A stretch of DNA of 64,000 bases, from positions 1 to 64,000 of the forward strand of contig JBJXGN010000298.1 in the NCBI GenBank assembly GCA_046160585.1. Reading direction: 5' to 3'. A program made the translations under genes and the position numbers. This document shows, one piece after another, positions 60,311 to 62,587 of the stretch (within the stretch, counting starts at the first letter, position 1; every line of letters starts with the position of its first letter). The notes beneath the pieces were generated by a model that was not told where the DNA came from, searched no databases, and saw nothing but the letters and a program-made list of their open reading frames with translations. The stretch comes from Kofleriaceae bacterium. Lineage in GTDB: Bacteria > Myxococcota_A > Polyangia > Haliangiales > Haliangiaceae.

Positions 60311-60371
60311 CAGGAACTCGCAAGGTTAGCGGCACACGTGTTTCGGAGATTGACGTGCCCACCAGTATCAT

Positions 60372-60406
60372 GGTTCTGTTACGTAACGATGTTACATAAC
60401 AGAACC
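60372..60406. promoter_or_regulatory. 35-bp near-perfect palindrome (15/16 arm match) centred on the ATG of the TonB-dependent receptor; candidate TetR operator
   Basis: GGTTCTGTTACGTAAC-GAT-GTTACATAACAGAACC in an AT-rich divergent intergenic region between the TetR gene and the receptor. Confidence 0.6.
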
Positions 60407-62587
60407 GTGTTCCTGCTGATGCTGTTTGCGACCAGCGTCGCGAACGCCGAGGTCCGAGGCCGCGTCATCGACGCGGAGACGAAGCAGCCGATCTCCGGCG
60501 CGACCGTCTACGGCGACGACGGTACGCCCGTGGTGACCGACGAGACTGGCGAGTTCGTGCTCACGTCGAGCACGCTCTCGATCACCGCCCTCGACGGCGA
60601 TCACGAGGCGTCGGTGGTCGAGGTCATGGGACGTGAGGCGATCGTGATCGAGCTCGCGAGCGTGACGGCGGGAGAGGTCATCGAGATTCGAGGCGAGCAG
60701 CGTGCGCGGACGCCCGGTGGCGTGACGCTCGATCGTGGCCAGCTCGCTGCGATCCCCGGATCGCGCGGGGACGTGTTGTCGGGGATCAAGAACCTCCCCG
60801 GCATCGCGAACAACGGGTCGCTCACCCCTCTCTCTTCGGGGCTCGTGATTCGCGGCTCGTCTCCCGAGAGCTCGCGCATTCTCGTCGACGGCTTCGAGAT
60901 CCCGATCCTGTATCACTTCCTCGGCGTGCAGTCGGTGATCCCGACGGAGATGCTCTCCGATGTCGAGTACATGCCGGGCACGTTCGGGGTCGGCTACGGG
61001 CGCGCGAGCGGCGGCATCGTCGCGGCGACATCGCGCGACACGCCCACCCAGACGAGTGGCTTCGCCGAGCTGTCGTTCATCAATGTCAGCGGGCTCGTAC
61101 AGGGCCCGATCGGCGATCGCGGCGGCTATGCCGTCGCAGCGCGACGCTCGGTGATCGACGCGATCTTGCCGGCCGTTCTCCCCGACGACGGCGGCCTCGC
61201 CTTCACGGCGTATCCTCGGTACTACGACTACCAGGCCAAGGCGTCGTTTCGCCCGCGCGAGGGCTGGGACATGCAGGCGTTCCTGTTCGGCTCCGACGAT
61301 CGAGTCGAGCTCGCCAGCGATCGCGACAACGCGATGGACCCGGTGGCCTCGGGACAGTTCGCGAACGCGACGAGCTTCACGCGATTGATCGCGTCGCTTC
61401 GCCGGAAGCGTCCAGGTCTCGACATTCGCAACGCGATCTCGGTGTACACGGACACGAATCACTTCGAGGTAGGGACGGAGCGCTACCTCCTGCTCGATCG
61501 GCTCGGGCTCGCGACACGTAGCGAGCTGCTATGGGATCCCGACGAGAAGCTCCGGATCGTCGCCGGTACGGAGTCCGATCTCACGCGGACAGACTACGAC
61601 ATCAAGTTCACGCGTCCACCGCGCGAAGGCGATCCGCGAGGACCGAACTTCACGCAGGATGCATTGATCGTCACGACCGGCTCGAACACGTTTCGCGATC
61701 TCGCGGCGTGGGCAGCGGCAGTCGTCTACCCCGTTCCGTCGCTCGAGATCACCGCGGGTGCGCGTGCAGATGTCTATCTCCGGAACGACGACCTCGAGCT
61801 GCAACCTCGCGGACAGATCGCCTGGACCGTCGCCGACGGCGCGACGCTGCGGGCAGCCGCCGGGACGTACACGCGGCCACCGGAGTACCTCGATCAGGGA
61901 TTGCAGCCGGATCTGGATCCGGAACACGCGGCGCAGTTCTCCGCCGGTGGCGAGAAGCGGCTCGACGAGACGGTGCTCGTGCGAGCGACCACCTTCTACA
62001 ACCGCCTCTCCGACCTGCTGGTGCTGCCCGCAGACCGGCGTGATCCGGCATCGCTCGGTGGGTACGAGAACCTCGGCGCTGGCGATGTGCGCGGGATCGA
62101 GCTGCTGGTGCAGGCGCGCACGGAGAGATTCTTCGGCTGGCTCGCGTACACGGGAGCGATCGCGAAGCGCCGTGACGGTGAAGGGATGCGGGAGCGTCGC
62201 TTCGACTACGATCAGGCACACAACTTCATCGCGGTGGGATCGCTCCAGCTCACCCCACACTGGCGAATCGGCGGTCGCTTCCAGCTCACGACGGGCAAGC
62301 CGTACACGCCCGTCGTGGGGACCATCTATCAGGCGGACGTCGACGCCTACCTCCCAGCGTACGGAGCGCCGAATTCGCAGCGCGTGGATCTGCAGCACCA
62401 GCTCGATCTCCGCGTAGATCGGACGTGGTCGTTCGCGCGCTGGAAGCTCGCCGCGTATCTGGACATCAGCAACGTCTACATCAACGCCGCGGCGATCGAC
62501 TACCAGTACAACTTCGACTACAGCCGCCGCACGGCGATCACGACGCTGCCGATCATCCCGTCCTTTGGACTGCGAGGAGAACTATGA
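60389..62587 (+). CDS. TonB-dependent receptor-like outer-membrane protein (N-terminal carboxypeptidase-regulatory-like domain, plug, beta-barrel)
   Basis: Signal MLHNRTVFLLMLFATSVANA. RGRVIDAETKQPISGATVYGDDGTPVVTDETGEF. Plug-like GDVLSGIKNLPGI...LVIRGSSPESSRILVDGFEI. Long beta-rich C-terminus, though the C-terminal residue is not aromatic. Confidence 0.65.
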   Translation: MLHNRTVFLLMLFATSVANAEVRGRVIDAETKQPISGATVYGDDGTPVVTDETGEFVLTSSTLSITALDGDHEASVVEVMGREAIVIELASVTAGEVIEIRGEQRARTPGGVTLDRGQLAAIPGSRGDVLSGIKNLPGIANNGSLTPLSSGLVIRGSSPESSRILVDGFEIPILYHFLGVQSVIPTEMLSDVEYMPGTFGVGYGRASGGIVAATSRDTPTQTSGFAELSFINVSGLVQGPIGDRGGYAVAARRSVIDAILPAVLPDDGGLAFTAYPRYYDYQAKASFRPREGWDMQAFLFGSDDRVELASDRDNAMDPVASGQFANATSFTRLIASLRRKRPGLDIRNAISVYTDTNHFEVGTERYLLLDRLGLATRSELLWDPDEKLRIVAGTESDLTRTDYDIKFTRPPREGDPRGPNFTQDALIVTTGSNTFRDLAAWAAAVVYPVPSLEITAGARADVYLRNDDLELQPRGQIAWTVADGATLRAAAGTYTRPPEYLDQGLQPDLDPEHAAQFSAGGEKRLDETVLVRATTFYNRLSDLLVLPADRRDPASLGGYENLGAGDVRGIELLVQARTERFFGWLAYTGAIAKRRDGEGMRERRFDYDQAHNFIAVGSLQLTPHWRIGGRFQLTTGKPYTPVVGTIYQADVDAYLPAYGAPNSQRVDLQHQLDLRVDRTWSFARWKLAAYLDISNVYINAAAIDYQYNFDYSRRTAITTLPIIPSFGLRGEL

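Follow-up and report, generated by a model that had tools for sequence, protein, structure and literature searches.

A conserved putative TetR-family operator centred on the start codon of a TonB-dependent-receptor gene in Kofleriaceae-type Myxococcota

We found a conserved 17-bp inverted repeat between a TetR-family regulator gene and a divergent TonB-dependent-receptor operon, and its dyad centre coincides with the start codon of the receptor gene. The family consensus of this core, ACGTAACA-N-TGTTACGT (CGTAACA-N-TGTTACG plus one further pair), is a previously undescribed operator motif, and a literature search on the half-sites found no characterised TetR with such an operator. On comparison of orthologous loci, the switch as a whole is well supported as a conserved putative repressor-binding site of an ordinary kind in an unusual geometry.

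The window, that is, the whole stretch of DNA that was analysed, comprises 64,000 nucleotides from a Kofleriaceae bacterium. The genes of the locus are as follows.

59636 to 60310, minus strand: TetR-family regulator, 224 amino acids (PF00440, E = 8.5e-16, 57.9 bits, cutoff 24)
60389 to 62587, plus strand: TonB-dependent-receptor-like outer-membrane protein, 732 amino acids, signal peptide MLHNRTVFLLMLFATSVANA (Plug, 32.7 bits, cutoff 23.9)
62584 to 63228, plus strand: lipoprotein gene, 214 amino acids, lipobox FAGC, with an ATGA overlap with the receptor stop and a GAGGAG Shine-Dalgarno (SD) sequence
63225 to 64000, plus strand, running off the window: SDR oxidoreductase gene (PF00106, E = 9e-40), with a GTGA overlap with the lipoprotein gene

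The C-terminal domain of the TetR protein matched PF13305 (TetR_C_33; E = 8e-14, 52.6 bits, cutoff 26.8). A structure search found no close solved structure for this protein, although many solved TetR structures are distant relatives of it (best E = 2.4e-10). The receptor, whose orthologs are 55-73% identical, also had a CarbopepD_reg_2 match below the cutoff. The lipoprotein had no family match in profile searches, and the SDR gene is syntenic in L004/L147 and L152. No tRNA genes were found in the window. For comparison, we used the window and 18 independent orthologous loci (19 in total), the TetR proteins of which are about 50-67% identical to that of the window. The TetR/receptor pair is kept in 17 of the 18, with an identical divergent TetR/operator/receptor layout, and L143 has lost the receptor.

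A sequence-only reading of the window had drawn attention to a 35-bp palindrome around the receptor ATG in an AT-rich setting, and had proposed it as the operator of the TetR regulator. The interval given there (60311-60420) corresponds to the entire intergenic region, which is 78 bp long, plus the first receptor codons; the inverted repeats lie partly in this region and partly in the start of the target gene.

60372 to 60406, no strand: 35-bp palindrome GGTTCTGTTACGTAAC-GAT-GTTACATAACAGAACC, with 16-nt arms, one mismatch and a 3-nt centre
60381 to 60397, no strand: core operator O(0), ACGTAACG-A-TGTTACAT, one copy per orthologous locus
60389 to 60391, plus strand: receptor ATG start at the dyad centre, the in-frame opening of the receptor open reading frame (ORF), followed by codon 2, TTA, at 60392-60394

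The palindrome exists as described, and its mismatched arm pair is C60382/A60396. Its surroundings are indeed AT-rich (GC 0.49-0.52 at 60300-60449 vs 0.60-0.72 in the flanks), and the A of the ATG is the central base of the 35-mer. An imperfect extension covers 60360-60418 (28-nt arms, 82% complementary). When one mismatch at most and a loop of at most 5 nt were allowed, this was the longest inverted repeat of the window, with an arm of 16 nt against maximum arms of 12-15 nt in first-order Markov resamples of 64 kb (n = 30). This margin alone is modest; it is the comparison between loci that decides the matter. The window's other long inverted repeats (36694-36720 and 32354-32382) were GC-rich and chance-like, and were rejected.

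The 17-bp core occurs once, at the same place, in every TetR/TonB-dependent-receptor intergenic region of the clade (19/19 loci: the window, all 17 others with the same gene pair, and also L143). Its symmetry is conserved at k = 1-8, and the sequence a few bases further out is fully diverged (about 0-0.2 bits). The copy in the window is one of the less perfect ones: it agrees with the consensus at 14 of the 16 specified positions, and six of its eight pairs are symmetric. Such conservation agrees with the earlier interpretation as a TetR-type operator between the two divergent transcription units, but only the inner 17 bp, not all 35 bp, form the conserved unit. The outer 9 pairs of the 35-mer are all complementary in the window (9/9) vs 2-6 of 9 at the other loci. 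Inner 10-bp palindromes, GTTACGTAAC/GTTACATAAC, were also considered as separate sites; the lack of conservation at positions -11 to -9 in the orthologs led us to reject them.

In L143, from which the receptor has gone, the operator is still beside the TetR gene, now ahead of a membrane-protein gene. L003 is a clade member that has the TetR gene without the receptor; there, the upstream operator is absent, and only weak sites occur by the membrane-protein gene. The operator was also absent at L149 and L150, whose TetRs are 41-43% identical and lie in other gene contexts. At L091, on a 66%-GC contig, a perfect 17-mer abuts the start of a distant TetR gene (33% identity), the neighbour of which is not a receptor gene. 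Among the matches listed in a metagenome-wide scan for ACGTAACANTGTTAC, most were low-GC chance matches, and only L091 and L113 adjoin TetR genes. The recognition segment in the HTH of TetR, EYSTTAIY, is near-invariant in the orthologs, parallel to the half-site. The operator co-occurs with the regulator across the clade, and the attribution of the site to the window TetR, which we infer, rests on this co-occurrence.

The centre base of the operator was A in 15 of the 19 loci and G in the other four, never C or T; thus, the centre is always ATG or GTG. In all the loci checked, the receptor ORF begins in frame at this codon, and in L001 and L013 there is no usable start other than the central codon. 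In L010, L012, and L154, an ORF begun at the operator centre has a long extension unlike a signal peptide; thus, the start is ambiguous there. The right half-site also serves as receptor codons 1-3, Met-Leu(TTA)-His/Arg. Of the 19 loci, 18 have TTA as codon 2, and TTA accounts for 0.5% of Leu codons; an invariant Leu of TetR, unlike receptor codon 2, is encoded by CTC/CTG in the orthologs. No SD-like 4-mer (GGAG, GAGG, AGGA, AAGG, or GGGG) was found at -20 to -1 of the receptor start in any locus (0/19), in contrast to the SD sequence of the downstream lipoprotein gene. The proposed occlusion of a ribosome-binding site is therefore inapplicable: there is no such site to occlude, and a DNA-bound repressor acts on transcription anyway. 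As a separate observation, the annotated start codon of the receptor differs between gene calls.

Putative promoter elements were located on both strands.

60350 to 60355, plus strand: TTGACG, putative -35-like hexamer of the receptor promoter, conserved in position
60323 to 60328, minus strand: TAACCT, 12 nt upstream of the TetR ATG and on its strand, a putative -10-like element

A consensus scan gave no match to a canonical sigma-70 promoter and no canonical -10. TTGACG lies exactly at -39 to -34 from the operator centre in 16 of the 19 loci, with a 1-nt shift in the other three. The sole candidate for the receptor -10 is TTCTGT in the window (TTCTAT also occurs), with an 18-nt spacer, 3/6 matches, and no A at position 2. 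The combination of TTGACG at -39 to -34, the 18-nt spacer, and TTCTNT predicts a transcription start at about -4 to -1. With no SD in the 19 loci, only ATG/GTG starts, and the fixed promoter spacing, the receptor mRNA is probably a leaderless or near-leaderless candidate. On the TetR strand, TAACCT is the only conserved -10-like element, found as GGTTA(G/C) at about -66 to -61 (+/-1) from the operator centre in most loci, and no convincing -35 could be assigned to the TetR promoter. Autoregulation through occlusion of this promoter had also been suggested; simple geometry gives it no support. As the -10-like element is about 61-66 bp from the operator centre, occlusion would need weak flanking sites, and only weak flanking units reach the place expected for a tetR -35.

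To find further copies, a position weight matrix (PWM) from the core sites was applied at a threshold of at least 14 bits to the 64-kb window, L001-L013, L139, L141, L143, L145, and L147, and at a threshold of at least 12 bits to the later loci L151-L154. Besides the operator, nothing else in the window matched. Extra matches were found directly upstream of a gene for a membrane protein of about 265 amino acids, at 152-168 in L139 and at 4473-4489 and 4491-4507 in L147, and weak sites preceded this gene in L003 (5414-5448). Together with a weak site upstream of exbB in L145, the copies at the membrane-protein gene were all the extra matches of at least 14 bits. L151-L154 each had only the intergenic site, and second, paralogous receptor-lipoprotein pairs in L009 and L012 had no operator match within the stretches examined. 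The sites at the membrane-protein gene do not have a start codon at their centre, and there the centre base can be C. In the window genome, we would expect this gene and a second operator shortly beyond position 64000. The extra copies before this co-occurring gene suggest a small regulon, which would consist of the TonB-dependent receptor, the lipoprotein, sometimes the SDR, and the family-less membrane protein of about 265 amino acids.

At a distance of 18 bp on both sides of the centre, the outer arms of the 35-mer fall on units that resemble the operator in degenerate form.

60363 to 60379, no strand: degenerate operator-like O(-18), right half GGTTCTGT, 10/16 consensus matches in the window
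60399 to 60415, no strand: degenerate operator-like O(+18), ACAGAACC-G-TGTTCCTG, within receptor codons 4-9

These units raise the alternative of a larger functional unit in the window genome, either all 35 bp of the palindrome or a longer phased array, in which at least two TetR dimers bind cooperatively at 0, -18, and +18 (possibly also at -36) in the manner of QacR or EthR, cover both promoters, and give autoregulation. Operator-like similarity does peak at offsets -18 (mean 8.3/16 consensus matches) and +18 (7.7/16), whereas neighbouring offsets do not rise above the background of 3.8 +/- 0.8; tandem sites before the membrane-protein gene in L147 and L003 have the identical 18-bp spacing; and in L139, the non-coding DNA after the main site contains an ACAGAAC motif. 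Outer symmetry, complete in the window, reaches 6/9 in L143 and L151, but most orthologs are near chance (2-4/9), and the flanking units agree with the consensus at no more than about half of their positions. The bases that are conserved in them are also explicable otherwise. On the left, the right half of O(-18) contains a conserved GTTCT.T block (-16 to -10), which holds the candidate -10 TTCTGT; on the right, signal-peptide codons may account for them, where G-T-T at +20 to +22 is conserved across loci. We regard such an array as possible but, on balance, doubtful.

Other explanations give the TetR protein no part or place the function in RNA. As TonB-dependent-receptor promoters commonly have AT-rich palindromic Fur boxes, the site might belong to Fur or another global iron or nutrient regulator, the neighbouring TetR being incidental. 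However, the best match to the 19-bp Fur consensus, GATAATGATAATCATTATC, was 10/19, equal to the median of 500 shuffles, and a Fur box was rejected. The retention of the site with TetR after receptor loss (L143), its presence beside the distant TetR at L091, and the match-free paralogous pairs in L009 and L012 also speak against another regulator, which we consider quite improbable. A hairpin at the 5' end of the receptor mRNA, hiding the AUG for translational control or as a thermosensor, is suggested by the fold of 60360-60420 in the window (-27.1 kcal/mol, z = -5.8), which puts the AUG in the loop or next to it. The corresponding 61-nt segments from 15 orthologs, however, form only weak structures, at -5.9 to -14.7 kcal/mol (z between -2.5 and +0.7). 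There are no compensatory pair changes, the left half being invariant while +6 to +8 drift, and no Rfam family matched; only spurious miRNA matches far below the threshold were obtained. Moreover, transcription, as predicted from the conserved -35-like hexamer, would begin within the palindrome and leave the left arm untranscribed. An RNA hairpin or known RNA family was thus rejected as the conserved function, and RNA-level action seems highly improbable. Finally, GC-rich 64-kb resamples reach 15-nt arms with one mismatch, as a functionless chance palindrome would have it. Nevertheless, all 19 loci keep the core within unconserved flanks, and copies of it turn up at another gene that is functionally linked; these comparative data effectively refute chance, the probability of which we take as negligible.

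We return to the core as an operator. Taken as a whole, a proposal with a TetR operator core, a block of the receptor promoter, a (near-)leaderless mRNA, release by a ligand, and weak units at ±18 seems likely to us. The core (60381-60397) would be the operator of the adjacent TetR repressor (59636-60310). A bound dimer would sit between the probable -10 region and the first three receptor codons, and would thus keep RNA polymerase from forming an open complex at, or escaping from, the promoter of the receptor-lipoprotein-SDR operon. Transcription would probably start 0-4 nt before the ATG and give a leaderless or near-leaderless mRNA. A small-molecule ligand, plausibly related to the receptor substrate, would free the operator from the repressor. 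The weak units would make the extra symmetry of the window genome and may recruit more dimers. A stronger version, with a truly leaderless mRNA, codons 1-3 fixed by the half-site, and cooperative TetR dimers on -36/-18/0/+18 coating both promoters, is in our view unlikely. In this version, the half-site would fix the first three codons and thereby force the rare TTA. If true, it would be an EthR-like multimeric TetR switch on outer-membrane uptake in Myxococcota, with a possible extra translational limitation through the TTA codon.

Tn10 TetR/tetO is the type system of the TetR family, with ligand-triggered release of the repressor. As in that system, the repressor gene here is divergent from its target, and a short palindrome (15-17 bp core) in the shared intergenic region overlaps the target promoter. 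Unlike tetO, the operator has an unrelated sequence and is one strong site, not two, centred on the target start codon; the target is an outer-membrane receptor operon instead of an efflux pump, and autoregulation is only putative. QacR binds the 28-bp operator IR1 as two dimers, and EthR binds a 55-bp operator as a cooperative multimer. The 35-bp symmetry of the window and the ±18-bp units would fit such multi-dimer composite operators, but the flanking units are degenerate, and the extended symmetry is missing in most orthologs.

In Rhodobacter sphaeroides, the acuR-acuI-dddL operon is leaderless, its mRNA starting at the AUG by 5'-RACE, and the AcuR operator, TAATAGAC-N6-GTCTATTA, is upstream of the ATG (PMC3017554). 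AcuR shares with the present case a TetR-family repressor, an inverted-repeat operator over the operon promoter, and a first gene without SD. It differs in that the leaderless gene is the regulator itself, whereas here the leaderless candidate, predicted from sequence, is the receptor gene and the dyad centre is the start codon. Leaderless mRNAs that start with RTG are known from mycobacteria (PMC4633059) and have been proposed for pexR in myxobacteria (PMC12754779). Like these, the receptor gene has no SD, only ATG/GTG starts (19/19), and a promoter element at a fixed short distance upstream; unlike these, its geometry predicts a leader of 0-4 nt, not exactly zero, and its product is an abundant outer-membrane protein, not a regulator. 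GTG is a poor leaderless start in E. coli but not in mycobacteria (PMC4633059); thus, by the E. coli standard, the four loci with GTG at the operator centre count against the leaderless reading.

In uncultured Kofleriaceae/Haliangiales-type Myxococcota, our finding assigns a small putative regulon to an uncharacterised TetR clade of the TetR_C_33 type. At the locus, one stretch of DNA would be both operator and coding sequence, with the start codon at the dyad centre and a rare TTA held by selection at the DNA level. It also provides a specific outer-membrane protein whose mRNA may be leaderless, in a phylum where such mRNAs have hardly been documented. With the motif, regulon members can be predicted in related genomes, and the start-codon annotations of the receptor genes can be corrected.

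A 35-bp palindrome, GGTTCTGTTACGTAAC-GAT-GTTACATAACAGAACC, occupies positions 60372-60406 of the window, where 78 bp separate a TetR gene on the minus strand from a receptor ORF on the plus strand.

Genes at the locus (window positions)
55705-59631, convergent with the TetR gene and immediately upstream: protein of 1308 aa carrying an nSTAND1 NTPase domain and numerous HEAT repeats
59636-60310, minus strand: TetR-family regulator gene (TetR_N and TetR_C_33 domains)
from 60389, plus strand: TonB-dependent-receptor-like protein, 732 aa (Plug domain, signal peptide)
62584-63228, plus strand: lipoprotein gene, translationally coupled to the receptor gene (ATGA overlap)
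from 63225, extending past the window end, plus strand: SDR gene (GTGA overlap with the lipoprotein gene)

The match of the receptor ORF to a carboxypeptidase-regulatory-like N-domain was below threshold. A Kofleriaceae MAG (Myxococcota) encodes a protein 100% identical to the TetR of the window. The nSTAND1/HEAT-repeat gene is not kept beside the TetR gene in the orthologous loci examined.

Each arm of the palindrome has 16 nt, C60382/A60396 being the only mismatched pair; a weaker extension takes it out to 60360-60418. The sequence-only reading had described an AT-rich setting with the receptor ATG in the exact middle, and both points hold: local GC is 0.49-0.52, compared with 0.60-0.72 in the flanks, and A60389 of the in-frame ATG is the central base. 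No other inverted repeat of this class in the 64-kb window is as long. As Markov resamples of the GC-rich 64 kb, used as a chance control, gave inverted-repeat arms of up to 12-15 nt, its length by itself is only modest evidence.

Orthologous loci were obtained by a scan of a genome collection with a TetR alignment and by exact-protein look-ups, giving 18 further independent loci with TetRs about 50-67% identical to that of the window. The divergent TetR/receptor(-lipoprotein) layout is kept in 17 of them, and all 18 contain, as a single copy at the equivalent position, a 17-bp palindrome with the consensus ACGTAACA-N-TGTTACGT. The sequence-only reading had named absence from such loci as grounds for rejection, and the comparison speaks for the element instead. 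Across the loci, positions 1-8 to the left and right of the centre are both conserved and complementary, and a few bases beyond the core the information is essentially zero, except in specific blocks such as GTTCT.T; this pattern points to selection rather than to too little divergence. All nine outer pairs, which extend the palindrome to 35 bp, are complementary in the window alone (2-6 of 9 elsewhere), and the functional core is 17 bp, not 35 bp as initially supposed. From these alignments, we infer that the core palindrome is a genuine TetR-family operator under conservation. The earlier proposal of a TetR operator beside the divergent receptor was thus correct as to the element, and incorrect as to its functional extent and its role at a ribosome-binding site.

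A pure chance palindrome is excluded by the conservation across loci. A hairpin in the mRNA is an unlikely alternative: the window sequence folds strongly (-27.1 kcal/mol, z -5.8), the orthologs only weakly (z between -2.5 and +0.7), compensatory changes are absent, and no Rfam family matches. A Fur box was excluded, the best match (10/19) being at chance level.

The operator-likeness at each offset from the centre (receptor strand), profiled across loci by a position weight matrix (PWM) and match counts, peaks sharply at -18 and +18 (mean 8.3 and 7.7 matches of 16); the adjoining offsets are at background (3.8 +/- 0.8 matches), and a weaker peak occurs at -36. The outer arms in the window, GGTTCTGT(T) and (A)ACAGAACC, each correspond to the inner half of one of the flanking units at -18 and +18. 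It is possible, but in our view rather unlikely, that the units would serve as auxiliary low-affinity sites, possibly for multi-dimer binding: the peaks are specific and their 18-bp spacing is that of tandem sites at a membrane-protein gene (see below), but the bases can be explained otherwise, by a -10 element on the left and by codons on the right. On the right, G-T-T at +20 to +22 (60409-60411) shows strong DNA-level conservation; it fits the right half of the +18 unit and is otherwise unexplained. Codon 8 is always TTN, with TTA for Leu again in several loci.

The PWM, built from the conserved sites, was applied at at least 14 bits to the window, L001-L013, L139, L141, L143, L145, and L147 (comparison loci carrying TetR relatives). 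It gave no further match in the rest of the 64-kb window and no stray matches in the other loci, the exceptions being mostly copies immediately 5' of a gene for a multi-pass membrane protein of about 265 aa. In L151-L154, scanned at at least 12 bits, the intergenic site was the only one in each. The membrane protein has no Pfam or NCBIfam match; His-rich motifs, e.g., HFFALHGLQ and GGRGxHSVGG, are conserved in it. Its gene accompanies the operator, either as part of the receptor operon, where it stands third in L141, L002, and L007, or with an operator copy of its own. It is absent from the window and is predicted just past position 64000.

Membrane-protein genes and their operators
L139 188-1003: gene; own operator at 152-168
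L147 4510-5223: gene; tandem operator pair 18 bp apart at 4473-4489 and 4491-4507, abutting the ATG
L143 3031-3828: gene
L141 214-1005: gene
L002 about 282-920: gene
L007 about 235-924: gene
L003 about 4653-5400: gene; weak tandem operator pair, also 18 bp apart

L143 has lost its receptor, and the operator still adjoins the TetR gene (region 3800-3931); a 33-codon relic ORF (VLRHRT...) opens at the centre of the operator, with the membrane-protein gene about 95 nt downstream. L003 retains the TetR and lacks both the receptor and the upstream operator. In L145, a 47%-identical TetR adjoins exbB-exbD-tonB-receptor, and a half-degenerate site lies 55 nt 5' of exbB. No operator match was found in L149 and L150, where the TetRs (41-43% identical) are in efflux contexts. 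A perfect ACGTAACAATGTTACGT in L091 (2928-2944; contig of 66% GC) directly adjoins the GTG start codon of a TetR with 33% identity, divergent from a carotenoid-oxygenase-like ORF; the half-site specificity may therefore be shared well past the myxobacterial clade. A second, weaker instance beside a TetR gene was observed in L113 (about 2294). These loci tie the site to the TetR, not to the receptor. Within the TetR clade, the recognition-helix segment EYSTTAIY hardly varies. A second, paralogous receptor-lipoprotein pair lies on the opposite side of the TetR gene in L009 (about 6028-8564) and L012 (about 4816-7635), and the stretch examined there gave no operator match.

Read on the receptor strand, the operator has A at its centre in 15 and G in 4 of the 19 loci, and never C or T; thus, the centre reads ATG or GTG in every locus. 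The sites at the membrane-protein gene, whose centre is no start codon, can have C there. The ORF of the central codon continues into the receptor in all loci checked, although the N-terminal length varies, and in L001 and L013 no alternative ATG, GTG, or TTG would yield a signal peptide. The second codon is TTA in 18/19 loci; TTA accounts for 0.5% of Leu codons in the long ORFs of the window, and an invariant TetR Leu, the codon control, is encoded by CTC or CTG in every ortholog. Given the start codon at the dyad and TTA as codon 2, the right half-site doubles as Met-Leu-(Arg/His), a charged signal-peptide start. The control residue, Leu60 of the TetR (60131-60133), is the rare TTA in this genome only, probably a neutral oddity. 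In L010, L012, and L154 (receptor ORFs of 790-827 aa), the first 35-100 residues from the centre form a long extension unlike a signal peptide, a canonical one being encoded farther along the ORF; the receptor start is therefore ambiguous there, and in this subgroup translation may truly begin downstream, which would place the operator in the promoter or 5' region.

The repressor had been expected to occlude a ribosome-binding site, which does not apply: no SD-like 4-mer occurs in the 20 nt before the receptor start in any of the 19 loci, in contrast to the lipoprotein gene, which has a GAGGAG SD. The hexamer TTGACG is found at -39 to -34 from the operator centre in 16/19 loci, and with a 1-nt shift in the other 3. 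The GTTCT.T block, conserved at -16 to -10, is the sole -10 candidate (TTCTNT, 18-nt spacer), and a poor one; a consensus promoter scan found no canonical promoter. This geometry predicts a leaderless or near-leaderless receptor mRNA, starting 0-4 nt before the ATG, and a repressor on the core would lie between the -10 region and +8, blocking initiation. Leaderless initiation in mycobacteria requires an RTG start (PMC4633059), the same rule as in the receptor loci, and leaderless transcription has been proposed for myxobacterial pexR (PMC12754779). As to autoregulation of the TetR gene, the sole conserved -10-like element on its strand is TAACCT (60328-60323), 12 nt before the TetR ATG and about 61-66 bp from the operator centre; at this distance, the central site by itself would not occlude it.

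By its arrangement, the locus appears to resemble the classical divergent switch of TetR/tetO, and the closest functional precedent is AcuR of Rhodobacter sphaeroides, which controls a leaderless operon (PMC3017554). It differs from both in its target, an outer-membrane receptor operon and a membrane protein without a family match, in the start codon at the dyad centre, and in the operator sequence, for which literature and solved-structure searches found no characterised counterpart. Automatic annotations conflict on the receptor start (L139, L141/L142, L147, and L151-L154), some calling the central codon, some a codon 4-12 codons downstream, and one a codon 7 codons upstream; an operator-centred start could harmonise the annotation of the receptor.
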